DNA from: an uncultured Muribaculaceae bacterium
Lineage (GTDB): Bacteria > Bacteroidota > Bacteroidia > Bacteroidales > Muribaculaceae
Length of the DNA stretch: 37,877 bases
Reading direction: 5' to 3'
NCBI GenBank assembly: GCA_964407165.1
Contig: CAYOUJ010000021.1
Location: 1 to 37,877, forward strand
The first letter of the stretch is position 1, and every line of letters begins with the position of its first letter. Shown piece after piece: positions 9,507-34,908 of this stretch. Position numbers and translations under genes: made by a program. The notes beneath the pieces are model-generated. The model was given only the letters and a program-made list of their open reading frames with translations, did not search any database and was not told the origin of the DNA.

Positions 9507-9830
9507 ATGCAACGCACATCCTCCATAGCAAAGATTGGCCCCGCCATACACCGCGTGGCTCCGGAGGCCGAGGTCATCCTCTTCGGCTCCCAGGCCCGTG
9601 GCGATGCCCGTCCCGACTCCGACATCGACATCCTTATCCTCTGGGACACCGGCAGAGAGCGGCTGACATGGGAAGAGAAAAACCGCCTGATTGACCCCTT
9701 GACAGAGATTGAGATGCAAGATTTCGTGAGCATTAACGCTGTCATGTATTCCCGTTACCAGTGGGATCACCGACCTTGCGTCAACCCTTTCTACTTAAAT
9801 ATCCAACGCGAAGGTATAAAACTAACTTAA
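9507..9830 (+). CDS. Nucleotidyltransferase (MNT/Pol-beta superfamily), antitoxin-like partner of the HEPN protein
   Basis: 107 aa. It carries the minimal nucleotidyltransferase motif LFGSQARGDARPDSDIDILIL (GS-x9-13-DxD). It lies 9 nt upstream of the HEPN gene. Confidence 0.8.
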   Translation: MQRTSSIAKIGPAIHRVAPEAEVILFGSQARGDARPDSDIDILILWDTGRERLTWEEKNRLIDPLTEIEMQDFVSINAVMYSRYQWDHRPCVNPFYLNIQREGIKLT

Positions 9831-9839
9831 CCATATATT

Positions 9840-10232
9840 ATGGAAGATCAAATACTACAAGATCTGATAAATTATAGAATTAATAGTGCGCATCGTGCCC
9901 TGATTGACTGCGCTACTATGATAGAAACGGGAGGCTACAACTGTGCCATCAACCGAGCCTACTACTCATGTTTCTATGTGCTTAATGCTTATTTTCTAAA
10001 GAAAGGTATAAGCACCAAAACCCACGATGGCATCAAGCAGATGCTTCATCTATATCTTGTGCGCAACGGTCTTGTGACCGTAGAGGAGGGTCGCACTTAT
10101 ACTCGTCTGCTTTCTGACCGAGTGAACTGCGATTACGATGATTACTTCGATAGTGGTGCTGAGGAGGCAGAAAGATACAGACAATTTGCTGAGGCTTTCA
10201 TCGCTAAAATTGAAAAACTTATCAAAGATTAA
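9840..10232 (+). CDS. HEPN domain protein, toxin-like partner of the MNT protein
   Basis: 130 aa. The helical HEPN (PF05168-like) pattern is visible, including the SDRVNCDYDD motif (R-x3-DYD). This locus is markedly AT-rich compared with its flanks. Confidence 0.78.
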   Translation: MEDQILQDLINYRINSAHRALIDCATMIETGGYNCAINRAYYSCFYVLNAYFLKKGISTKTHDGIKQMLHLYLVRNGLVTVEEGRTYTRLLSDRVNCDYDDYFDSGAEEAERYRQFAEAFIAKIEKLIKD

Positions 10233-10275: not shown

Positions 10276-10364
10276 CAACGTAAATCAAGCGGCACCGTTA
10301 CCCGATTAACCGCTTACCCGATTAAAAACCCAAAATCACAAACTAAAAACTAAAAACTAAATAT

Positions 10365-11512: not shown

Positions 11513-11575
11513 AAAATCATCGACAATCATCGATAAAAATCGATAATTATCGATAATAATCGATTATCATCGACT
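11513..11575. repeat. Six tandem 10-bp units, each centred on ATCGA(T/C) (consensus wwnATCGAyA), between recA and ribH
   Basis: The units read atcatcgaca, atcatcgata, aaaatcgata, attatcgata, ataatcgatt, atcatcgact. The helical-turn periodicity and phased A/T tracts are seen directly in the sequence. Confidence 0.8.
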
Positions 11576-12070: not shown

Positions 12071-12086
12071 CTCGCTGTCATATCAC

Positions 12087-12140
12087 GCGAAGAAACAAAG
12101 GAATAAAAAGAAATTTCTTTTTATTCCTTTGTTTCTTCGC
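12087..12140. terminator. Long perfect hairpin: a bidirectional intrinsic terminator after ribH
   Basis: 24-nt perfect inverted repeat gcgaagaaacaaaggaataaaaag / ctttttattcctttgtttcttcgc with a 6-nt loop. The stem is flanked by an A/T run that gives U-tracts on both strands. Confidence 0.8.
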
Positions 12141-12190
12141 ATGATGGTCAGTGAAATTAGTTGTATATAGCCTCCACTTCATACATTTAA

Positions 12191-12315
12191 TTTTCAGGAC
12201 GGGTCACATTGTCAACCTTGTCAGGACGCATGTCAACCAACACAGGACAATTGTCAACTTTATCAGTAAAAACTGTCAACCATTTTCAGGACGGGTCAAT
12301 TTTCAGGACGGGTCA
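12191..12315. repeat. Operator-like repeat array: 3x ttttcaggacgggtca (two directly tandem), 4x TGTCAAC, 5x CAGGAC
   Basis: 17-mer copies at 12191, 12283 and 12300. CAGGAC-n3-TGTCAAC occurs twice, 22 bp apart. The array sits between the ribH terminator and the promoter of the downstream module. Confidence 0.8.
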
Positions 12316-12350
12316 AAATGAACCAATATGATTAACTAAGATTAACAAAT

Positions 12351-16955: not shown

Positions 16956-17020
16956 GACAATAGTATTCAGATTTCAGTTTTCAGTATTCAGATTTAAAAC
17001 ACGCAGGGGGGCGCCTCGGT

Positions 17021-25065: not shown

Positions 25066-25133
25066 CTCATACAGAAACAACAGAAACGACAGAAACTCAT
25101 TTATAGTTTCTGTCGTTTCTGTTGTTTCTGTAT
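25066..25133. terminator. About 30-bp perfect-stem hairpin between convergent genes (bidirectional terminator)
   Basis: tcatacagaaacaacagaaacgacagaaact-cattta-tagtttctgtcgtttctgttgtttctgtatga. The inverted repeat is seen directly in the sequence. Confidence 0.8.
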
Positions 25134-25142
25134 GAGGTGGGG

Positions 25143-26072
25143 TTAGGCGTGGTAGGTGCCGATGTGGCGCTGCTTCTTTTCCTCGAAGATTTCGCTGATT
25201 GCGAAGAAGATGCCGCTCTCTTCGACGTCGCCGAACTCGCGGTTGATGGCCGTGCCAAACATGCGCATGGTAGGGGAGAGGCTCATGTAGGCGTTGACCA
25301 GCGGGGGGATGTTGAAGCCCTGCTCGCGGCAGGCGTGGTTGAGTATGCGATAGTCCTCCTTGAAAGTGGCGCCGGTGAACAGCCGCTCCATCTTCTTGAC
25401 GTCGGTGTCGGTCTGCAGCGGCTCGATGGGGGTGACCAGGTGCTCGGGGTCGGGGAAGTGCTTGTTAAGGAAGTAAAGAATCATGTTGCGGCACTCGGCG
25501 TTGTAGCTCGGGTACATGGTGACCTTGCCGAAGAGGTAGCGTATCTCGGGGTGCACGACGGTCAGCGCACCCAGACCGTCCCAGAGGTTGTCGAGCACGT
25601 AGATGGCCTTGACGCCGGCGCGCGTAGACTGGTATTCCAGGCGCACGAAAGAGCGGCCAAGCTCCAGCGTCTGTGGCAGGTATTCCTCCATGAACTTCGG
25701 GGAGAAGTTGAACATGTGGCTGGTGGCTATTCGAGGCCGTCGAGTGGCGATGTCGGTCATGATGTCCTTGCCGCAGATATACCGGTAGCCGCCGAGTATC
25801 TGCTGCTGCTCCGGATCCCAGACTATCAGCTGCCGGCAGGGCGGGTCCATGAGGTCAAACTCGTCGATGTCGCAGTCTTTGCCCGTGCCGCCGCCTGCGG
25901 TGCGGAATGCTATCTCGCGTAGGCGTCCTACCTCGCGCATGGTGTTGACAGCGCGTCGGCCGTCGACCACATATATCTCGTTACCCCCCTTGTTGGTGGC
26001 GCGGAGGAAGGTGTCAGAGTTGAGTTCGGGTATTATTAGCGCCGGGTCTACCGGGTCGATGATTCGTTGCAT
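25143..26072 (-). CDS. glsB: Hemolysin-like GNAT N-acyltransferase (OlsB/GlsB-like, lipoamino-acid/glycine-lipid synthesis)
   Basis: 309 aa. The architecture is Acetyltransf_5/OlsB-like (LREIAFRTAGGGTGKDCDIDEFD..ILGGYRYI). It is adjacent to a PlsC-like O-acyltransferase, as in the B. thetaiotaomicron glsB-glsA pair. Confidence 0.72.
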   Translation of the reverse strand: MQRIIDPVDPALIIPELNSDTFLRATNKGGNEIYVVDGRRAVNTMREVGRLREIAFRTAGGGTGKDCDIDEFDLMDPPCRQLIVWDPEQQQILGGYRYICGKDIMTDIATRRPRIATSHMFNFSPKFMEEYLPQTLELGRSFVRLEYQSTRAGVKAIYVLDNLWDGLGALTVVHPEIRYLFGKVTMYPSYNAECRNMILYFLNKHFPDPEHLVTPIEPLQTDTDVKKMERLFTGATFKEDYRILNHACREQGFNIPPLVNAYMSLSPTMRMFGTAINREFGDVEESGIFFAISEIFEEKKQRHIGTYHA

Positions 26073-26081
26073 GGTTTTCGG

Positions 26082-26924
26082 TCAAGGGTTTGCTGTAGAC
26101 AGAGAGTCAACGGTCTGGCGTATGCGCCGTGCCTCGGCGCGAGCCTGTGAGCCGCCGTGGAGGGTGCCGGGGGGTATGGCCTCGCCGACGGCTACGCTGA
26201 AACGGCTGCCCCGCGCGCGCACCACCTCCTTGGGCAGGCGCACCATCTCAATGTTGAGCTTGATGCCCAGGCGCGTGCGCAGGCGTGCAAATTTATAAAA
26301 AAAACTTGAATTGCGGCCACCAAAATGTACGGGAATTATGTCGCGGCCGTAACGCACGGCATAGTTGACGAACGATGGCTTCCACTCCAGGTCGGCGATG
26401 ACGCCCCCTTTGTGGCGGCGCGAGACCAGTCCGGCGGGGAAGATAATCATCGGCACGTCTGCTTCCAGTGCCTCCTCGAGAGCCGTGGCGCCCGTGCGAT
26501 CCTGGCGTCCGTGTTTGTTGACGGGCACGAAGACGGGCCGCAGCGGCTCGACGGCCATCAACAGGTCGTTGACAACGAACCGCGGTTCGCAACCGTGCCG
26601 GTGGGCCACCATGTCGATGAGCGCCATTCCGTCGAGGCCTCCCAACGGATGGTTTGACACGTAGAGCACGCGCCGGCGGCCGGGGTCGGGCAGCACGCTG
26701 CCGGGGGTAAGGCTGTAGCGCACGTCGAGGTCGTCGAGCACGCCCGCGGCGAAGGCCGAGCCTTGGCGGTCGGCGTTGTGCGTAAGCAGCGCGTTTAGCT
26801 CGTCCTGGCATATCAGCCGCTTGAGCCACCGCACGGGCACGAGCCACCGCCACCGGCGCGGCACGCGCTGGCGCACCACGGCGTCGATGTCGATGCGCAT
26901 GGGTGATGAGGTGGCCTTTTCCAT
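26082..26924 (-). CDS. glsA: PlsC-family O-acyltransferase (OlsA/GlsA-like)
   Basis: 280 aa. The motifs VSNHPLGGLDGMALI and IFPAG are present. It lies 9 nt upstream of the GlsB-like gene. Confidence 0.72.
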   Translation of the reverse strand: MEKATSSPMRIDIDAVVRQRVPRRWRWLVPVRWLKRLICQDELNALLTHNADRQGSAFAAGVLDDLDVRYSLTPGSVLPDPGRRRVLYVSNHPLGGLDGMALIDMVAHRHGCEPRFVVNDLLMAVEPLRPVFVPVNKHGRQDRTGATALEEALEADVPMIIFPAGLVSRRHKGGVIADLEWKPSFVNYAVRYGRDIIPVHFGGRNSSFFYKFARLRTRLGIKLNIEMVRLPKEVVRARGSRFSVAVGEAIPPGTLHGGSQARAEARRIRQTVDSLSTANP

Positions 26925-26931
26925 TTCCCCG

Positions 26932-26939
26932 CAAAGTTA
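26932..26939 (-). promoter_or_regulatory. -7 promoter element TAACTTTG (minus strand) about 8 nt upstream of the glsA-like ATG
   Basis: The plus strand reads cccgCAAAGTTAcg next to the start at 26924. Confidence 0.5.
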
Positions 26940-26972
26940 CGAAAAAACTTTGTAACAAACCCATTGAAGTAA

Positions 26973-27023
26973 CGAAATCCCGAAAACTCGATTTTTCGGG
27001 ATTTCGGGATTTCGATATTTCGA
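26973..27023. repeat. Palindromic GAAATCCC/GGGATTTC repeat element, left copy (imperfect)
   Basis: cgaaatcccgaaaactcgatttttcgggatttcgggatttcgatatttcgat. It is related to the perfect palindrome at 28641..28690. It lies between the DUF805 gene stop and the glsA promoter. Confidence 0.85.
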
Positions 27024-27034
27024 TGGCACAAGGC

Positions 27035-28162
27035 TCAATAGACTTCCAAGGTCACATCAAACGTCTTTCCGGTATTGAGGTTGTGGTAAGAGCCGACGAA
27101 ATGGCCTTGGTACATCTCCAGATCGAAGCGCTCGAAGACCTCGCCGGTAGAAGGATTGGTGGCACTGAGCGACAGCTCGGTGGCTTCGGCATCGCACGTG
27201 CCCTTCAGCGGAATCCAGCTTGACGCCTTGTCGCCGCTTGCCTCCAGGGTTGACACGTAGGCATAGCGGCCGGTGACATGTCCGTTCTTGCAGCTCACCT
27301 CCATAAATATGGGATATTCCTTGCTGCCGCTATATAGAAGGCCGCTACAGGTATAGTCGTAGGTGTGGGCGTAAGCGGGGACAGCTGGAGCCTCGTCGTC
27401 ATAGACGTCGTCGACGGCATCGTCGTCGTCCATGACATATTCATATCCCGACTCTCCTATGGCGTCGGCCACTTCCATAAAGGCCATAACCATGAGCGTG
27501 TATCCTATGATTGTCACAATGATGCATCCGGCCCAGTAGGCGATGTCGAGGGGCTTGAACACGCCGGGGTTTTTCTCCTCGCGTTCATATTGCGAGGGCT
27601 GGCAGAGCAGGTAAAGCACGTAAAGCGGGCCGACGATGGGGATGAGGCCCAGCAGCATGAATGCCGGGCTCTTGCCCACGTCTGACAGGCGGCGTCCGGT
27701 GGCGGCGAGTATGCCCAAACCGGGGCCGAGTATGGCCAGGCCGAGGATGATCCACAGCCATATACTTGCCTTGGTAGAGGATGTGGAGTCTCCCGAGAAG
27801 GTAAGCATCTCGGCGCCGGAGTCGCCGAAGATTGCGAGGAATATAAGCATCAGCGCCGGCAGCGCCATGAACCACAGCGCGGCGTTGAGCCAGGTGAGCC
27901 AGAAGGCGCGCCGCGGCATGGGGTCGGAGTAGTCGAAGATATAGTCAATCTTGGTGAACGGATACCATCCGTAAGCCTCGCATATCGACTTGGGCTCCGA
28001 GGCATCCCAGTGCTCTTCGGCGTCTATGCCCTCACGATAGACCTCCTCCTCGCCGGCGTCGGCGTTAGCGTTCACGTTGGCGTTAGGGACGGGCACCGTG
28101 GCTTCGCCAGGCTCCGCGGCTGTCTGAGGTGCGGGCGCGGAGGTCGTCACAACGGGTGGCAC
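27035..28162 (-). CDS. DUF805-family inner-membrane protein with a Pro/Ala-rich N-terminal linker and a C-terminal soluble domain. It is probably the 3' part of a frameshifted zinc-ribbon-DUF805 gene.
   Basis: The track ORF begins at a GTG. The DUF805 core is recognisable (RRAFWLTWLNAALWF..ATGRRLSDVGKSPAFMLLGLIPIVGPLYVLYLL, matching the RLHD-G-S motif). The frame stays open upstream into the zinc-ribbon ORF. Confidence 0.65.
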   Translation of the reverse strand: MPPVVTTSAPAPQTAAEPGEATVPVPNANVNANADAGEEEVYREGIDAEEHWDASEPKSICEAYGWYPFTKIDYIFDYSDPMPRRAFWLTWLNAALWFMALPALMLIFLAIFGDSGAEMLTFSGDSTSSTKASIWLWIILGLAILGPGLGILAATGRRLSDVGKSPAFMLLGLIPIVGPLYVLYLLCQPSQYEREEKNPGVFKPLDIAYWAGCIIVTIIGYTLMVMAFMEVADAIGESGYEYVMDDDDAVDDVYDDEAPAVPAYAHTYDYTCSGLLYSGSKEYPIFMEVSCKNGHVTGRYAYVSTLEASGDKASSWIPLKGTCDAEATELSLSATNPSTGEVFERFDLEMYQGHFVGSYHNLNTGKTFDVTLEVY

Positions 28163-28190
28163 GGTTTGTGACGGGGCGGGCGGTACTTGG

Positions 28191-28286
28191 TCAAACCCCG
28201 CTGCGGCAGTGCTTGCACTTGCGGGCCGTGGCGAGTATCAGCTCGCCGCAGGCCGGGCATGTCTTCATTTGGGGTTCTGTCTCCAT
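28191..28286 (-). CDS. 31-aa zinc-ribbon ORF (METEPQMKTCPACGELILATARKCKHCRSGV), the likely 5' part of the DUF805 gene
   Basis: CPAC-x12-CKHC is a classic C4 zinc ribbon. The ORF ends at a TGA directly after a GGGG run. The downstream gene's frame is open across it, offset by one nucleotide. Confidence 0.5.
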   Translation of the reverse strand: METEPQMKTCPACGELILATARKCKHCRSGV

Positions 28287-28582
28287 AGTGTGATAATGAG
28301 TTGGTAAAGTGTTATGACAAGAAAAGCGTGAACCGGCATTTGACCTTCACGCTTGTCGAGGCTCTCGCACAGCCCAGTAATAACGATTGGGTAAAGCGGC
28401 CCACGCCCGTAAACGGGGTGAACGCACAATACCTGAAGTCGATTATTACTGTTTGAAATTTGCGAGATTTCGACAAGTCGGTCTTCAGTCTTGTGATTCA
28501 GTATTTCGTTGGTATGTTGAGTATATTCTTTCTCTCGGGGTATAAAGGAGGGTTAAGATTGTGCGTGCACTATTGCACACGG

Positions 28583-28590
28583 CAAATTTA
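28583..28590 (-). promoter_or_regulatory. -7 promoter element TAAATTTG (minus strand; caTAAATTTGccgtg), the candidate promoter of the zinc-ribbon/DUF805 unit with a leader of about 290 nt
   Basis: The motif matches exactly, but the distance to the ATG at 28286 is unusually long. Confidence 0.35.
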
Positions 28591-28640
28591 TGAAGAAATT
28601 TTGAACTGCACAACATGTTTTGCACCATAAGTACCTCCCT

Positions 28641-28690
28641 CGAAATCCCGAAATCCCGAAATCCCGGGATTTCGGGATTTCGGGATTTCG
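28641..28690. repeat. Perfect 50-bp palindrome (GAAATCCC)x3-(GGGATTTC)x3 centred on CCCGGG
   Basis: cgaaatcccgaaatcccgaaatcccgggatttcgggatttcgggatttcg, seen directly in the sequence. It is the right-hand partner of the 26973 element. Confidence 0.95.
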
Positions 28691-28696
28691 ATAGCG

Positions 28697-28717
28697 GGGG
28701 TTATTTGCGGAGGGTGC
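28697..28717. repeat. 21-bp direct repeat gggttatttgcggagggtgcg (copy 1). Copy 2 at 28933..28953 spans the stop codon of the giant gene.
   Basis: The two copies are exact and 236 bp apart. They bracket the terminator hairpin and a ccggcaaatttgccgg palindrome. Confidence 0.85.
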
Positions 28718-28870
28718 GCTCGGCGAAACCAATACAGGCGGTAGTAGAATTTTTAGGGAAATTATTTGCCTGTTTAAAAGAAAGTTGATACCTTTGCAAT
28801 TACGAAAACCGGCAAATTTGCCGTTATTCGTAAATGCAAAGGGGATACTTATAAAAAATCGCAAAAAATC

Positions 28871-28901
28871 AACGGTTTGGCAATTTTTTTGCCAAACCGT
28901 T
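28871..28901 (-). terminator. Intrinsic terminator of the giant gene (aacggtttggc-loop-gccaaaccgtt, followed on the minus strand by a T-run)
   Basis: 11-bp perfect stem. The minus-strand transcript continues gattttttgcgatttttt. Confidence 0.75.
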
Positions 28902-28935
28902 TTCTCGTCATGTAAAATCGTTCCGGAATTATGGG

Positions 28936-31900
28936 TTATTTGCGGAGGGTGCGGGAACGGGCGGTGCCGTCGGAGTAGACGGTCTGCTCGACGACGACGG
29001 TGCCGGGGGCCGGGTTGGCGATCTGCACGCCCTGGAGGTTGAAGTAGCGGACGGCGACGACGGTGGCGTCGTCGGCGCCGACAGCCTCGATTCCGTCGAT
29101 GACGTTGCCGAGCTTGATGGTGTAGACGCGGACGAGGTCGCCGGCACGGAGGGTGATGGTGCCGGTGCGGCCGGAGGCCTCCTGCAGCGGGTGGATTATG
29201 CCCTCGTCGGCGTCGATGAAGAATTCCTCGGAGGCTTCCCATGTCAGGCCCGGAAGGTATGCGACGTGTATCTTGTCGGTGACGCCCTCGGCGGTGTCAT
29301 CGCCGCTGAACACAAGCAGTGCGGCGTGGAAGTTGGCCTCGGGCACGTCGGCGAAGGCCTTGAGCGTGGGCATTGCGTACTGGTGGTAGTCCCAGAGGTC
29401 GCTCAGGGACGTGGTGATAAGCTCACGGTCGGTCAGGCCCTTGGCGAACGAGGCGGAGTACTCGTCTTGCACGAGCGCGGGGTTGACATCGGTGCTATAG
29501 TAGCAGGAGTCGACGCTGACCTTGGTCTGCGTGGAGGTGCAGTACATGGCAGCGGCGCAGGTGGTGCCGTCGGTGCAGTTGATCTTGCCGTAGGCTATGT
29601 TGCGGCGTAGCGTGGCGCCGGTGGAGGCGCCGCAGATGCCGCCGACGAACATCTCGCCGGTGAGGGTGCCGTAGTTTGCGCAGTCGTGGATGTTGCCGGT
29701 GGTGGCGTATCCGCTGATGCCGCCGACGTGGCCGTAGGCGGTGGTGGTGCTCTGCCGGTCGGCGCGGGTGGAGGTGACGCTGCCGAGGTTGATGCATGAG
29801 CTGATGTGCGACGACTGGGAGGTACCCGCGATGCCGCCGGTGCGGTTGCCCACGCTCATGACGGTGCCGTAGTTGACGCAGTCGGTGATGGTGCCGGAGA
29901 TGTTTCCGAAGACGCCGCCGACGGCGTAGGCGTTATTGGGGGTGGCGGAGCCGTTGACCACGGTGGCGTAGTTGACAAGGTTGCGGTAGACGGCGGAGGC
30001 TCCGTTGCCGTTGCCGATGACGCCGCCGAGGTCGTAATAGTTGCTGTAGACCGAGTCGCCGTAGTTTACGCAGTTGGTGACTACGTTGGCATACGAGCCG
30101 GCCTGGCCGATGACGCCGCCGACGTAGGTCTTGTTGCCGATCACCGTGCCGTAGTTGACGCAGGAGTCGACGGTGCATGCTGCGGTGAATGAGCCGAAGC
30201 AGCCGCCGAGATAGTTCTCGCCGCGGACGTCGACGTGGTTGACGCAGTTGATGAACGTTCCGGAGGCGCTGTAGCAGATGCCGCCGGCGCCGGCGGAGGT
30301 GAATACCAGCTCGCCGAAGTTCTCGAGGTCGCGGTAGAGGCCGCCGCCGGTCATGGTGCTGGCGATGCCGCCGATATATCCGGAGGCGGTGATGACGCCG
30401 TAGTTCTTGCAGTCGATCATGTCGCCGCCGCAGCGTGCGGCGATGCCGCCGGCAGTGGTCTTGCCGCAGGTGATGTTGCCGTAGTTGACGCACCCCTTGA
30501 CGAGCGAGCCTGCCTGTGTCTGCTCGACGATGCCGCCCATGGAGGTGCCGGAGCAGTCGAGGTTGGCGCGGTTGACGCAGTTGATGATGCTGCCGCCGGC
30601 GTAGAGATAGCGGACGAGGCCGCCGACGTCGGCTGCCGTGGTCATGGTGGTGATGAGCGTGGCGTCTTCGTTGACCACGTTCTCAATGGTGCCGTAGCAC
30701 TTGTCGACCAGTGCGGAGACGTAATAGTAGGCGGCGATGGAGCAGGTGCCCAGGCGCAGGTTGCGCACGGCGCCCTTGTCGGTGAGGGTGCCTATGATGG
30801 CCACGTACTGATAGGGCTTGACAGACCGGTCGGTGCGGTCGATGGTGAGGTAGTTGATGCTGTGGTTACGTCCGTCGATGATGCCGCCGAAGGAGTTGCT
30901 GTCGAAGCCGATGGGTGTGAACTGCGGTATGCCGGTGAAGTCGAGGTCTGCCGTTATAGCGAAGTGGTTGCCCTCGAAGGTCAGGCCGTAGGTGTTGGTG
31001 TAGTCAGAGAGTGTGATCAGGTCGGCTGCGCAGGTGATGAGGAAGGGGTCGGCCTCGGTGCCGCTGCCGGCGAAAGGTGCGAAGAAAGCCGTGACGGCGT
31101 ATTCGCGGGTGAACGCGCCGGAGGTGCCGACGAGGGTGATGCTCTGGGGCTGTACGCAACCGGTGACCTTGAGGGTGTCGCCGGCGATGCTGAAGTATTC
31201 GGAGGCGGGTATGCTCCACGTAAGGCCGTCGGCCTTGGAGAGCTGTGCGTTGGTGGTCATGGAGCCTACGGTCTGCCCGTCGCCGAAGGTGACGTACATC
31301 GAGCGGAGGGTAGAGGCTGCGGTTTCCGAGGCGCGGGCCTTGAGCACGGGATACTTGCCGGCGGCGTAGTCGAATATGTCGGCGGAGAGGCCCTCGATGG
31401 CCGTTCCGGTGGTCAGCACGGAGGTGTTGACCGCGGATATGCCGTCGCGGGGGAGTCCGTTCATCGCGCCGAGGGTGCAGAGCTGGTTGTCATAGTAGCA
31501 GGCCTCGAGCACGGCGGGAGCCGAGGCTACCTGGCCGCCGAAGGCGCCGCAGTAGGTGCCGCCCTCGCAGATTACGATGCCGGTGTTGACGCACCCGCGC
31601 AGCTGTGCCGCGGAGGTGACGCCGCCGATGATGCCGGCGGCGATGGTGTAGGCCTGCACGGTGCCCTGGTTGACACAGTTCTCGATGACGCAGGCATCGG
31701 CGCCGCTGGTGGCGTCGCTGTTGAAGACTATGCCCGCTGCGCCGCCGGTGGAGGCGTATTCGTAGGCGTTGGTGACGGCGTCGGTGTGGACGTAGCCGTC
31801 GTTCTGGCAGCCGGATATGGTGGAGCCGCCGTACATCTGCCCGACGATGCCGGCAGCGTATCGGTAGCCGGCGGTGATGGTGCCGGCGTTGTAGCAGTTT

Positions 31901-34900
31901 ATGGCACGGGCGCCGGCATTGAGGCGGGTGCAGATGCCGCCGACGTAGTTGGCGGAGACGGTGATGTCGGCGTAGTTGCGGCAGTTTTCGACGGTGCCGT
32001 TGCAGATGGCCACGAAAGCGGCGAGGCCGGCGTAGCCCTTGAGCGAGCATGAGGCGTCCATCGTGATGTCCTTGAGGTGGCCGTTGGGGCCGAGGATGCC
32101 CACGAGGGCGACGGTCTGGCGCGACGAGGAGGCGACGGGGCTGCCGCTGCTGTCGAGCGTGAGGCCGTTCATCGTCCAGTTTTTGATGGTGTAGCCGCGG
32201 CCGTCGAGGGTGGCGTCGAAGTAGTGGGTCTCGTTGGTGTCGTCGCCGATACCGTAGAAGTCGGTGACGCCGGTAAGGTCGATGTCGTTGCCCAGGACGA
32301 AGTAGTCGCCCGTGTAGTGGAGGCCGTTGGAGGTAACGCCCGTGTTGAGAGTGCGCAGGTCGTCGACGGTGCGGAGCACGAAGGGGTCAGCCTCGGTGCC
32401 GCTGCCGGGGAACTGCGAGGGGGAGACGTTGAGCTGGTACAGGCGGGTGAACGTGCCGGCGTCAGTGGTGAAGCGTGCGGAGATGAACTCCTTGCCTTGG
32501 TCGCCGGTGAGCGTCACGTCGGAGCCGCTGATGGTCAGGGCACCATGAGAGAGGACGGGCGCGTTGTCGTCGTCGAGGAGATACCAGGCCACGTCCGAGG
32601 GGGTGTCGAGGGTGAACGCGGTCTTAACATAAGAGGAGGTCTGCCCCTGGCCGAGATGTATGGCGGCGCCGAAATATCCGGCGACGTCGGCGGCCATCCA
32701 CTTGGGCGTGGGATAGCGGCCGGCGGTGAACGTCCACATATCCGAGCCGAAGCCCTCGGGACCGTTGGCCGTGGTCAGGGAGTCGGTGGCGGTGTAATGG
32801 TCGGCGGTGAGGGTGCCGGCCATCTGTCCGTCGACGTACACATTATTAAATATGGTGCCGTCGTTGATGACACCGGCGACGCCGTTGTCGACGAGCGTCT
32901 GGCCGTTGCCGTAGACCTGGCCGGTGGAGATGACGCGTGTGAGGGTGTTATTGTTTGAGGCGAGGTTGCTGAGATATCCGGCGATGCCGCCCAGGCGTGT
33001 GCCGGTGCTGGTGCCCTGGACATAACATGATGCGACGCAGTCTTCGATGGTGGCGCCGGAGGAGTATCCGACCAGGCCGCCGGCATAGCCGTTGGAGCTG
33101 GTGGCGACGGTCTGTATCATCACGGAGGCGGCGCATGAGCGCAAGGTGCAATAGGTGACCAGGTTACCGGCGATGCCGCCGACCCAGCCGTAGGAGCTGG
33201 TGTCATACATCGTGCCCAGCACGTAGCAGTTTTCGATGAGCACGGGTGAGGCGGAGGCGGAGGAGCAAGCGCCGACTATGCCGCCGAGGCCGTGCTCGAT
33301 GCTGGTGGAGGGCACTGACTGCTTGGCGGAGATCTGTGCGGAGCAGTCTTTGATGGTGCCGCGGTAGATCATGCCGGTGATGCCGCCGAGCTGGCCCAGG
33401 CCGGTGAGGTAGCCCACGTAGTGGCAGCCGCTGACGTATGTGCTGTAGCCGACGATGCCGCCGGCGTAGCGCTCGTAGGTGACGAGCTGGCCGCTGACGG
33501 AGCAGTCTTCGATGCGACCTAAGGAGTAGCCGGCGACGAAGCCTGAGTAGCGGCCGTAGGTCAGCATGCGGGCCGTGGTCATCTTGACACCCCGGACGAC
33601 GCCGGAGGCGCCGACGTAGCCGAAGATGCCGGTGTATTCGGCGCTGCGCTCGACGTAGAAGTTCTTGATGGTGTAGTTGCCGCCGTCGTAGGTGCCGTTG
33701 AAGCAGTTGGTGGCGTCAGCGCCGACAGGGCGGTACTGCCCGACGTAAGAGGCGAAGTCGATGTCGGCTGTCTGCTTGAAATATTTGCCCTCGTAGGTCA
33801 GGCCGGAGGCCACGGCGGCGGCGAGCAGGTCGAGGTCGGCCGTGGAGGCTATCTGGTATGGGTCAGCCTCGGTGCCGCTGCCGGTGAAGGAGTAGGCCTG
33901 CGAGGAGGGGAGGGTGAGCACGCCCGGCTCGACGGAGATGGTCGAGCTGTTCATGCCGTAGAGACAGCTGGTGGAGGCCGACGAGGTGGTGGCGGCGAAG
34001 ACGCCCCAGGGGCCGAAGCCGAAGCCGGTGGCGCTGAGCGTGCCGGTGATGTTGCCCGGGATGCCCTTGTTGCCGTAGGTGCCGGTGCCCCACTCGGCGG
34101 GGTATGTGACGTAGGACGTCGCCGTCAGGCTGGTGTAGCTCATCATCTGCGGCTCCAGGGTGAAGGTGCCGTCGGCGTTAAGGAAGACGGTCACCTCGCG
34201 GCCGGAGTTGGCCAGGTTGGCGATGAGAGCCTGCGTGGGCGTGGTCTGCTTGACGAAGACGGGATACGAGGTGTCGGAGAAGGTCTGTGCCGAGAGGTCG
34301 CGGAGGCTGCCCGTGAGCGTGGCGTTGGAGGGGTAGAGGCGCATGGTGGTGCTCATGGCCAGGGCGGAGCCGACGTATTCCGAGGTCTTGTCGGTGACCA
34401 GCACGGCCCAGCCGCTGCCGAGGGTGAAGCACCCTTCGGCGTCGTCCCAGGTGAAGACGAGGTTCTTGGCCGTGCTGTAGCCCCACTGCACGGCGTCGAA
34501 ATAGACCATCTCGAAGTCGCCGTAGGGGCTCATCGTGTATACCACCTGGTGGGGGAAGGTTATGGTGGCGGAGGTGGCGTCGTAGGTGCCGGTGAGGGTG
34601 CCGAGGTTGTAGAAATTGGTGAGCGTGGCCGTGCCGTCGGTGCCGACGGTGAGCTGCGGCATGGCTGTGAACCCTTCGCGGGCGGTGCCGGTCTGTATGT
34701 AGTCATACTCGGCATAGTAGCCCGTGGGGCTTGCGGGGGCCGACTCTGCGCGGTGGCTGAGCGCGGGGCTGTGTGTGTCGAGCGCGCCGGGGAGGACAAT
34801 CTCTTGGAATCGCTCGTCGGCGACCGACTGCGCGGAGGCGCCGAGGGCGCACACGGCCATGGCGACGGCCATGGCTGCGGCGCGTAGGTTGAGGTAGTAA

Positions 34901-34908
34901 TTGTGCAT
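28936..34908 (-). CDS. Giant (1990 aa) T9SS-secreted cell-surface protein with many GLUG-motif beta-helix-like repeats and a C-terminal T9SS sorting domain (CTD)
   Basis: It has a signal peptide (MAVAMAVCALGASAQS). There are dozens of degenerate repeats carrying GGI(A/V)G / GGLVGY / YxGGIxG motifs (GLUG-like). The C-terminus (VVAVRYFNLQGVQIANPAPGTVVVEQTVYSDGTARSRTLRK) matches the Por/T9SS type-A sorting domain pattern. The long plus-strand ORFs across this region are antisense artefacts. Confidence 0.85.
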   Translation of the reverse strand: MHNYYLNLRAAAMAVAMAVCALGASAQSVADERFQEIVLPGALDTHSPALSHRAESAPASPTGYYAEYDYIQTGTAREGFTAMPQLTVGTDGTATLTNFYNLGTLTGTYDATSATITFPHQVVYTMSPYGDFEMVYFDAVQWGYSTAKNLVFTWDDAEGCFTLGSGWAVLVTDKTSEYVGSALAMSTTMRLYPSNATLTGSLRDLSAQTFSDTSYPVFVKQTTPTQALIANLANSGREVTVFLNADGTFTLEPQMMSYTSLTATSYVTYPAEWGTGTYGNKGIPGNITGTLSATGFGFGPWGVFAATTSSASTSCLYGMNSSTISVEPGVLTLPSSQAYSFTGSGTEADPYQIASTADLDLLAAAVASGLTYEGKYFKQTADIDFASYVGQYRPVGADATNCFNGTYDGGNYTIKNFYVERSAEYTGIFGYVGASGVVRGVKMTTARMLTYGRYSGFVAGYSLGRIEDCSVSGQLVTYERYAGGIVGYSTYVSGCHYVGYLTGLGQLGGITGMIYRGTIKDCSAQISAKQSVPSTSIEHGLGGIVGACSSASASPVLIENCYVLGTMYDTSSYGWVGGIAGNLVTYCTLRSCAASVMIQTVATSSNGYAGGLVGYSSGATIEDCVASCYVQGTSTGTRLGGIAGYLSNLASNNNTLTRVISTGQVYGNGQTLVDNGVAGVINDGTIFNNVYVDGQMAGTLTADHYTATDSLTTANGPEGFGSDMWTFTAGRYPTPKWMAADVAGYFGAAIHLGQGQTSSYVKTAFTLDTPSDVAWYLLDDDNAPVLSHGALTISGSDVTLTGDQGKEFISARFTTDAGTFTRLYQLNVSPSQFPGSGTEADPFVLRTVDDLRTLNTGVTSNGLHYTGDYFVLGNDIDLTGVTDFYGIGDDTNETHYFDATLDGRGYTIKNWTMNGLTLDSSGSPVASSSRQTVALVGILGPNGHLKDITMDASCSLKGYAGLAAFVAICNGTVENCRNYADITVSANYVGGICTRLNAGARAINCYNAGTITAGYRYAAGIVGQMYGGSTISGCQNDGYVHTDAVTNAYEYASTGGAAGIVFNSDATSGADACVIENCVNQGTVQAYTIAAGIIGGVTSAAQLRGCVNTGIVICEGGTYCGAFGGQVASAPAVLEACYYDNQLCTLGAMNGLPRDGISAVNTSVLTTGTAIEGLSADIFDYAAGKYPVLKARASETAASTLRSMYVTFGDGQTVGSMTTNAQLSKADGLTWSIPASEYFSIAGDTLKVTGCVQPQSITLVGTSGAFTREYAVTAFFAPFAGSGTEADPFLITCAADLITLSDYTNTYGLTFEGNHFAITADLDFTGIPQFTPIGFDSNSFGGIIDGRNHSINYLTIDRTDRSVKPYQYVAIIGTLTDKGAVRNLRLGTCSIAAYYYVSALVDKCYGTIENVVNEDATLITTMTTAADVGGLVRYLYAGGSIINCVNRANLDCSGTSMGGIVEQTQAGSLVKGCVNYGNITCGKTTAGGIAARCGGDMIDCKNYGVITASGYIGGIASTMTGGGLYRDLENFGELVFTSAGAGGICYSASGTFINCVNHVDVRGENYLGGCFGSFTAACTVDSCVNYGTVIGNKTYVGGVIGQAGSYANVVTNCVNYGDSVYSNYYDLGGVIGNGNGASAVYRNLVNYATVVNGSATPNNAYAVGGVFGNISGTITDCVNYGTVMSVGNRTGGIAGTSQSSHISSCINLGSVTSTRADRQSTTTAYGHVGGISGYATTGNIHDCANYGTLTGEMFVGGICGASTGATLRRNIAYGKINCTDGTTCAAAMYCTSTQTKVSVDSCYYSTDVNPALVQDEYSASFAKGLTDRELITTSLSDLWDYHQYAMPTLKAFADVPEANFHAALLVFSGDDTAEGVTDKIHVAYLPGLTWEASEEFFIDADEGIIHPLQEASGRTGTITLRAGDLVRVYTIKLGNVIDGIEAVGADDATVVAVRYFNLQGVQIANPAPGTVVVEQTVYSDGTARSRTLRK

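Follow-up and report, generated by a model that had tools for sequence, protein, structure and literature searches.

Long palindromic octamer-repeat hairpins at gene boundaries beside the glsA-glsB genes of an uncultured Muribaculaceae bacterium

We analyzed a DNA stretch of 37,877 nt (hereafter, the window) from contig CAYOUJ010000021.1 of assembly GCA_964407165.1, which derives from an uncultured Muribaculaceae bacterium. All coordinates refer to this window. Two related palindromic elements built of octamer repeats, named A (26961-27026) and B (28640-28691), are located between genes of the minus strand. The local order of minus-strand transcription is adhesin, Zn-ribbon-DUF805, glsA and glsB. 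The giant adhesin-like gene (28936-34908, minus strand) encodes 1990 amino acids with a weak GLUG-motif match, and its real 3′ end is at 28933-28953. The Zn-ribbon-DUF805 gene occupies 27035-28286 (minus strand). It is followed by the genes for a glsA-like acyltransferase (26082-26924, minus strand; ATG at 26924) and a glsB-like GNAT N-acyltransferase (25143-26072, minus strand).

The zinc-ribbon and DUF805 open reading frames (ORFs) form a single gene, which is frameshifted because the G4 run at 28197-28200 contains one G too many. When one G is removed, a protein of 416 amino acids is obtained, in which the Zn-ribbon, a linker, the DUF805 membrane domain and a C-terminal domain follow one another continuously. 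The stop codon of this gene (27035-27037) is 8 nt from A. TAnnTTTG, the −7 motif of Bacteroidetes, occurs 21 times in the window, where 6.4 occurrences are expected; this enriched motif is located upstream of genes. The −7 box of the DUF805 gene, TAAATTTG (28583-28590, minus strand), lies 50 nt downstream of B in the minus sense, and that of glsA, TAACTTTG (26932-26939, minus strand), lies directly downstream of A. An extended promoter consensus around the −7 box, tttcgTAAnTTTGc, occurs at many genes in the window. The promoter flanks next to A and B resemble each other; homology between them was considered and rejected, since the resemblance is accounted for by this general consensus. An earlier note on this DNA, made from the sequence alone, had placed B upstream of a cassette promoter and A downstream of the last stop codon of the cassette, and this placement matches the gene map. 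Its description of a bracketed transcription unit holds in that one promoter-gene unit lies between A and B; however, the two genes that it named are in fact one frameshifted gene. The elements were also said to separate this unit from the adhesin gene and the glycine-lipid genes. The positions are as described, but an insert of 214 bp parts B from the adhesin stop codon.

Element B is a perfect 52-bp palindrome, (GAAATCCC)3(GGGATTTC)3, with the ends TC/GA. Its sequence is TCGAAATCCCGAAATCCCGAAATCCC|GGGATTTCGGGATTTCGGGATTTCGA (28640-28691) with the center CCCGGG. The extended hairpin covers 28632-28700, and the 50-bp core (28641-28690) corresponds to the coordinates of the earlier note. As RNA, B is predicted to fold with −47 to −48 kcal/mol on either strand (z approximately −6.3 to −6.9), and none of 200 shuffled sequences equaled this value. 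Element A is an imperfect relative of B and forms a 66-nt structure. Its core hairpin, CGAAATCCCGAAAA-CTCGA-TTTTCGGGATTTCG, is at 26973-27014; the outer stem pairs with 26961-26972, and beyond the core there are extra one-sided units, GGGATTTCGATATTTCGATGG. The predicted folding energies of A are −41 kcal/mol for the plus strand (z −10.9) and −30 kcal/mol for the minus strand (z −6.4).

An identical 24-mer, TTTCGGGATTTCGGGATTTCGATA, is common to A (26994-27017) and B (28670-28693). The gapless in-register alignment of the two elements extends over 56 nt (six octamers plus CGAT[G/A]GC) with 82% identity. A and B are also inverted repeats of each other: the arms 26970-27026 and 28637-28693 are 82% complementary, and the direct identity is also 82%. 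When the 16-mer GGGATTTCGGGATTTC was searched with up to two mismatches, all seven matches in the window fell within the two elements, whereas chance alone predicts 0.03. The perfect symmetry, the common 24-mer and the 82% alignment bear out the palindrome pair with a common octamer arm that had been claimed before. The predicted folding of both elements is far more stable than that of shuffled sequences (z −6.3 to −10.9).

Logan contig L001 (SRR10165008), an independent assembly, is identical to window positions 25107-28665. This contig ends exactly at the centers of B and of another palindrome at 25066-25136. Breaks at these centers are what a de Bruijn assembler should give if the perfect palindromes are real. 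A and B are real sequence features, and their architecture is unusual. The Logan assembly also carries the extra G at 28197-28200, which may mark a pseudogene or a site prone to slippage, or may be a homopolymer error. As a separate observation, the 3′ arm of B and its flank in the minus-strand reading of 28635-28665, GGGATTTCGGGATTTCGGGATTTCGAGGG, fit the canonical G-quadruplex motif G3N5G3N5G3N7G3; the plus strand at 28666-28696 has the pattern G3N5G3N5G3N11G5.

The region between B and the adhesin gene contains an exact 21-bp direct repeat, GGGTTATTTGCGGAGGGTGCG, at 28698-28718 and 28933-28953 (21/21 identical). The copy at 28933-28953 is the true end of the adhesin gene and comprises its five last codons, the TAA stop and CCC. 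The copy at 28698-28718 (minus strand) is a ghost of this 3′ end, with five last codons, a stop codon (TTA at 28701-28703) and CCC, and it lies 9 nt from B. The 214-bp insert (28719-28932) occupies the space between the ghost and the true end. It possesses a plus-strand promoter (TTTG-N20-TACCTTTG, −7 box at 28789-28796), a 52-nt palindrome (28791-28842) and a 13-bp hairpin (28871-28901), which is followed by the U tract GAUUUUUUGCGAUUUUUU on the minus strand. Judging from these features, this hairpin appears to be the present canonical terminator of the adhesin gene. No second copy of the insert was found in the window or in any fetched locus. The simplest history would be that B once directly followed the adhesin stop codon, and that an insertion, which duplicated 21 bp of the target, displaced B. 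The promoter, palindrome and terminator hairpin of the insert also make up a candidate small RNA of approximately 105 nt (z −5.4), which heads toward the adhesin 3′ end on the opposite strand and has no match in Rfam.

To characterize other gene ends, the 90 nt after every stop codon in the window were folded. All transcription-unit ends have a stable hairpin approximately 6-22 nt after the stop codon, and most of these hairpins have no U tract. Two of them are long palindromes of the same class as A and B. The palindrome at 12082-12145 (64 bp) has 31 of the 32 arm positions paired, with one mismatch, and starts 11 nt after the ribH stop codon. The palindrome at 25066-25136 (71 bp) has perfect 32-bp arms of three 9-mers and lies between the convergent genes for a sigma-54 activator and glsB. 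Both are 6-11 nt from stop codons. Thus, all four long palindromes begin 6-11 nt from a stop codon (the ghost stop in the case of B), and none is found elsewhere in intergenic DNA.

The main argument for a function at the 3′ ends of mRNAs (termination, 3′-end protection or promoter insulation) is this placement after a stop codon, which is common to all four long palindromes. It also speaks against a function that depends on which gene A and B enclose. We consider with moderate confidence that A and B are boundary hairpins, which act as terminators, 3′-end protectors or insulators between three consecutive minus-strand units. The predicted folding of the transcribed strand (−47 kcal/mol for B and −30 kcal/mol for A, z approximately −6.3 to −6.4) also speaks for this. 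The terminator or insulator function suggested in the earlier note is supported by the anatomy (8-9 nt after the real or ghost stop, a promoter next to each element, and hairpins at the other unit ends), but the U tract is missing.

In each element, a sense-strand octamer array, (CGAAATCC)n, begins 8-9 nt after the stop codon and is followed by its own inverted copy. In the proposed mechanism, the minus-strand RNA would fold into a very stable stem-loop just ahead of the next promoter. This hairpin may end or pause transcription, or may block 3′ exonucleases, and could in this manner set the 3′ end of the upstream mRNA. In addition, it may shield the downstream promoter from read-through. B would be the original adhesin hairpin, and the 214-bp insertion would have brought in a hairpin and U-tract terminator, so that B today may be a second-line insulator or a relic. 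Regarding the origin, this genome and many Bacteroidota tend to have tandem arrays of 7-10-nt units in intergenic spacers, and fold-back or template-switch replication may have copied such an array into its own inverted repeat, giving a perfect palindrome. The sequences and their folding, the positions, the ghost stop codon, the promoters, the comparable hairpins at other gene ends and the wide spread of the arrays are observed, whereas termination or stabilization, an origin by template switching and the succession of events are inferred.

The palindrome at 25066-25136 provides information on this order. Its 9-mers are ACAGAAACA, ACAGAAACG and ACAGAAACT, that is, ACAGAAAC-A/G/T, which differ in the last base, and the opposite arm reproduces each of these variants in exact mirror image. 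Therefore, the array probably diversified first, and the inverted copy was made later. In line with such copying, no G-U pair is present in any of the perfect stems, although B and the palindrome at 12082-12145 are flanked solely by same-strand genes. Template switching is a documented source of hairpins and of their perfecting (PMC8794818, PMC7202029). This quasipalindrome mutagenesis would explain the perfect symmetry of the arms, including the mirrored unit variants at 25066-25136 (PMC8794818, PMC7202029). However, it is a mechanism of origin and not an element family, and for the present elements it is what we infer.

Several points weigh against the boundary-hairpin interpretation. A and B have the stable, stop-proximal stem-loop of a canonical intrinsic (Rho-independent) terminator, but neither conforms to the full definition. 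No U-rich tract is present directly 3′ of the B stem, where the RNA continues with AGGGAGGUACUU, and only a weak U tract is found after the A stem, where it continues with UUACUUCAAUGGGUUUG. A consensus terminator scan reported 28871-28901 and 25078-25124; A and B were not reported. Because the U tract is missing, we did not classify A and B as intrinsic terminators. Furthermore, stems of 26-32 perfect bp far exceed the needs of termination and would be substrates of RNase III. B is now 245 nt from the true adhesin stop codon and behind a canonical terminator; thus, it may be without a current function. Hairpins of this length (at least 18 paired bases) are absent from seven related Muribaculaceae glsA-glsB loci (approximately 67 kb, partly redundant). 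The feature is therefore lineage-specific, and it could be mutational rather than selected. Finally, a history of duplication or recombination linked with the arrival of the DUF805 gene could likewise account for the resemblance of A and B in register.

Known terminators include hairpin-only types (I-shaped, with poor U tracts) and bidirectional intrinsic types. As in these, a stable stem-loop is located a few nucleotides after the stop codon between units, and the palindrome at 25066-25136 would serve two convergent genes. In contrast, the stems here consist of 26-32 perfect bp of tandem 8-9-nt units and are several-fold longer, and B has no U tract.

The palindromes may also be neutral by-products at the DNA level, in which octamer arrays prone to slippage were folded back during replication, with no harm and no RNA or regulatory role. 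Several properties are consistent with this idea. Tandem arrays with periods of 7-10 fill many spacers of the window. When Tandem Repeats Finder was applied to 417 kb of other low-GC loci, mostly from Bacteroidota, and the seeded arrays were set aside, period 7 was represented by 46 arrays, period 8 by 20 and period 9 by 12. The symmetry of the palindromes is strictly Watson-Crick, unlike the G-U tolerance of RNA. B, moreover, appears redundant behind a canonical terminator. However, the regular placement of four long palindromes 6-11 nt from a stop codon is not expected from neutral events, and the hairpin at every unit end suggests a functional requirement that elements of the A/B type fill. 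We regard a purely neutral origin as possible but rather unlikely.

A function as a protein-binding operator, or as a contingency locus with variable repeat number, was considered next; B would then control the DUF805 promoter and A the glsA promoter. Both elements are directly upstream of promoters, and palindromes with repeated half-sites are typical of operators. A gene for a sigma-54 activator is nearby, and in other bacteria the expression of adhesins is modulated by simple-sequence repeats in intergenic DNA (PMC12721329). However, B spans roughly −65 to −115, which is far longer than known operators, and its perfect 3+3 symmetry argues against frequent independent slippage. There is no sigma-54 promoter motif near B; since no −24/−12 promoter is nearby, B was rejected as a sigma-54 enhancer site. 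In addition, the palindromes at 12082-12145 and 25066-25136 have unrelated sequences but the same position relative to the stop codon, which points to a 3′-end role and not to a promoter role. We consider an operator or contingency locus improbable.

The earlier note had raised recombinase sites that delimit a movable cassette. Here, A and B would be sites at which the 1.6-kb DUF805 unit is excised, inserted or inverted, through a dedicated recombinase or through homologous or hairpin-targeted recombination. In agreement with this, A and B bracket exactly one promoter-gene unit, and they share 82% in-register identity and the identical 24-nt core. The neighboring 21-bp direct repeat shows that insertion events took place in the region. 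However, Pfam scans of all sizeable ORFs of the window detected no integrase, recombinase or transposase (including HUH/Y1 and RAYT); the gene content is of the housekeeping kind, with recA, ribH, queC, queF, pdxA, a SusCDE set, gdhA and similar genes. No direct repeat or target-site duplication flanks the A-B unit or either element. The GC content at third codon positions (GC3) of the DUF805 gene is 0.75, which is inside the native range (0.74-0.90), and a horizontal origin on the basis of composition was rejected. For comparison, the MNT/HEPN pair at 9507-10232, which is clearly foreign, has values of 0.65 and 0.41.

Comparison with relatives bears on the same question. The DUF805 protein had no homologue at E ≤ 1e-3 in a word-indexed search, and distant relatives have no DUF805 gene beside glsA, both of which speak for recombination sites. 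However, the other homologues of GlsA among 5.8 billion clusters are at most 61% identical, and the GlsA and RecA clusters are singletons; the lineage is Muribaculaceae-like and has been sampled poorly. In seven related loci (GlsA 55-61% identical), glsA-glsB is kept and the upstream genes are unrelated; at such a distance, their gene order is not informative on the presence of the DUF805 gene. Exact matches of 27-31 nt to GGGATTTCGGGATTTCGATATTTCG of A were found at unrelated Prevotellaceae and Bacteroidaceae loci. Therefore, shared units need no common descent of the flanking genes, and a resemblance between A and B does not by itself imply common mobility.

The invertons of Bacteroidales are invertible promoters flanked by inverted repeats. 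A and B are likewise inverted repeats (82% complementary) around a segment that contains a promoter. However, this segment holds a whole gene together with its promoter, no recombinase gene is nearby, each repeat is itself palindromic, and L001, the only other assembly, is identical and breaks at B. If the segment bounded by A and B were inverted, promoter and gene would turn together, and nothing would be switched. A homologous deletion between A and B, which needs no special element, is conceivable. Other classes of mobile DNA were compared as well. Miniature inverted-repeat transposable elements (MITEs) have terminal inverted repeats, a target duplication and a length of approximately 100-400 bp; the present elements are 52-66 bp, palindromic throughout and without a flanking direct repeat. 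The core GTTRRRY/RYYYAAC of integron attC sites, which have an R''-L''/L'-R' architecture, does not flank A or B, and the window contains no integrase. Recombinase, target duplication and further copies in the window are missing, GC3 is native-like, and an inversion would be without regulatory logic; a movable cassette is not supported, and we consider recombination sites highly improbable.

The octamer was then searched for elsewhere, as the earlier note had proposed for Bacteroidales. A scan for CGGGATTTCGGGATTTCG in one genome per species gave at least 117 loci (L002-L118), compared with an estimated number of approximately 17 for a random 18-mer. The matches listed do not include this organism and concentrate in Prevotellaceae, other Bacteroidales, Chitinophagaceae (Longitalea, Niastella) and some Planctomycetes, and several Bacteroidota genomes have at least 5-7 octamer-array loci each among them. 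The sequence is thus widespread in Bacteroidota, mostly in one direction: nearly all matches listed are degenerate period-8 arrays of variable length, such as cgatatttcgggatttcgggatttcgagatttcg, which sit mainly in short spacers between co-directional genes. L004 and L006, which are homologous loci, differ in array length. On the sense strand, GAAATCCC was the reading 14 times versus 7, a difference that is not significant in this crude ORF-based context with noisy ORF calling, and a 5′-leader role of the arrays was therefore rejected. Palindromic versions are rare: when metagenomes were scanned for CGAAATCCCGAAA-N0-30-TTTCGGGATTTCG, 20 contigs were obtained. Among them, one soil organism carries a hairpin with octamer arms at each of two separate loci, L134 and L144, which both lie at the end of a contig. 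The contigs also contain at least three hairpin families, unrelated and present in multiple copies. These families, from groundwater, soil and sediment metagenomes share the core CGAAATCCCGAAA...TTTCGGGATTTCG: a first group of L126, L127, L131, L136, L142, L143 and L145, a second of L128, L132, L133, L135, L139 and L140, and a third of L137, L138 and L141. One of these families has a REP-like arm that contains GTAG, ATTTCGGGGACAGGCTAC.... The density of long hairpins is three in the 38-kb window versus about one per 64 kb across 890 kb of array-rich loci, and none of the latter is array-built.

These dispersed hairpins and the Bacteroidota genomes with several octamer-array loci would be in line with A and B as members of a genome-wide palindromic family (REP/REPIN- or MITE-like), two copies of which are here by chance. 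Repetitive extragenic palindromes (REP) and BIME of enterobacteria, and REPIN, are high-copy elements of defined length, which contain GTAG as a motif and are associated with RAYT transposases. A and B resemble them as intergenic palindromes after gene ends, which can stabilize the upstream mRNA and punctuate operons. However, the 37.9 kb contain two copies only, which are adjacent; different repeats are present in the other 11 intergenic regions, and neither A nor B contains GTAG. Terminal inverted repeats with a target duplication are not seen, and no RAYT or other transposase gene is in the window. Furthermore, most of the genomic occurrences listed are one-directional arrays of variable length and not elements of defined size. 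A REP/MITE-like family, which had also been suggested before, is therefore not upheld for this genome, and we judge it very improbable. Rfam gave no match for A or B at the gathering threshold; below it, only generic models of miRNA-precursor hairpins appeared, and these matches at the E-value threshold were discarded as meaningless.

Inverted pairs of uptake sequences (DUS of Neisseria, USS of Haemophilus) act as terminators. Like A and B, they are inverted pairs of a short oligonucleotide after genes, which give a terminator hairpin. However, DUS and USS are over-represented, whereas the octamer shows no sign of genome-wide over-representation or an uptake role, and the arms of A and B are tandem repeats of the unit. 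Short tandemly repeated repetitive (STRR) heptamer arrays occur in heterocystous cyanobacteria. The heptamers of the Haemophilus influenzae hmw genes are intergenic simple-sequence contingency repeats (PMC12721329). Both types share with the octamer arrays the unit of 7-8 nt, the intergenic location and a length that varies between homologous loci (compare L004 and L006). However, they are one-directional, whereas here an array is joined to its own inverted copy. A literature search found no description of this sequence, of octamer repeats in Prevotella, or of abundant 7-9-nt intergenic arrays.

None of the four alternatives has positive support beyond what boundary hairpins already explain. 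Most probably, A and B represent a known kind of element, the gene-end hairpin, in a lineage-specific variant, rather than a new system of mobile cassettes; nothing at this locus is evidence for a new mobile element. If they are working terminators, the gene-end hairpins of a Muribaculaceae-like gut bacterium can be very long, free of a U tract and built of tandem repeats, which would have a bearing on terminator prediction and on part design for Bacteroidales. Perfect palindromes of this length break short-read assemblies. This may partly explain the poor assembly of such lineages and why the elements have gone unseen.

Of greater interest as a lead is how abundant 7-9-nt intergenic arrays are across Bacteroidota. 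As a speculation, which we think rather doubtful, this lineage might follow a two-step route: an array of 7-10-nt units, of the type found in many Bacteroidota, grows after the stop codon, and template switching inverts it, so that very long, "self-made" terminators without a U tract arise. Neighboring hairpins that share units could then provide portable homology for the gain or loss of single units, such as the DUF805 gene, and 7-9-nt intergenic arrays could be a general, undescribed feature of Bacteroidota with a role in translation leaders that lack a Shine-Dalgarno sequence or at 3′ ends.

Additional features of the window were observed. Tandem arrays of 7-, 10- and 16-17-nt units are located in 5′ leaders and co-directional spacers, namely in the recA leader (10294-10361), in the recA-ribH spacer (11515-11573), upstream of the gene at 12349 (12282-12316) and in the spacer between the polyprenyl synthase and FKBP genes (16962-16995). 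The motif TGTCAAC is repeated at 12200-12285. The 5′ leader of the DUF805 gene (28287-28576, minus strand; approximately 290 nt) is strongly structured, with a predicted −81.7 kcal/mol (z −4.3). It has no Rfam match, and a function as cis-regulatory RNA is possible. The leaders of glsA, the SSF transporter gene and the MNT gene are very short or absent. The MNT gene belongs to an MNT/HEPN pair (nucleotidyltransferase/HEPN, toxin-antitoxin type) at 9507-9830 and 9840-10232. The GC3 values of the pair, 0.65 and 0.41, are well below those of the neighbors, and the pair, which is situated between recA and the SusCDE cluster, resembles a small island of foreign DNA.

Inverted arrays of the octamer with a different arrangement were observed in the Prevotella metagenome-assembled genome Tb.RUG.522. 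At two loci (L020, 5663-5869; L110, 1649-1816), (GAAATCCC)3-5 and (GGGATTTC)2-3 flank an AT-rich segment of approximately 110-130 nt. The left flanks of the two loci are similar, and the segment of L020 holds the −7 box TATATTTG. The segment between these inverted arrays may be an invertible promoter or the loop of a large-loop hairpin.

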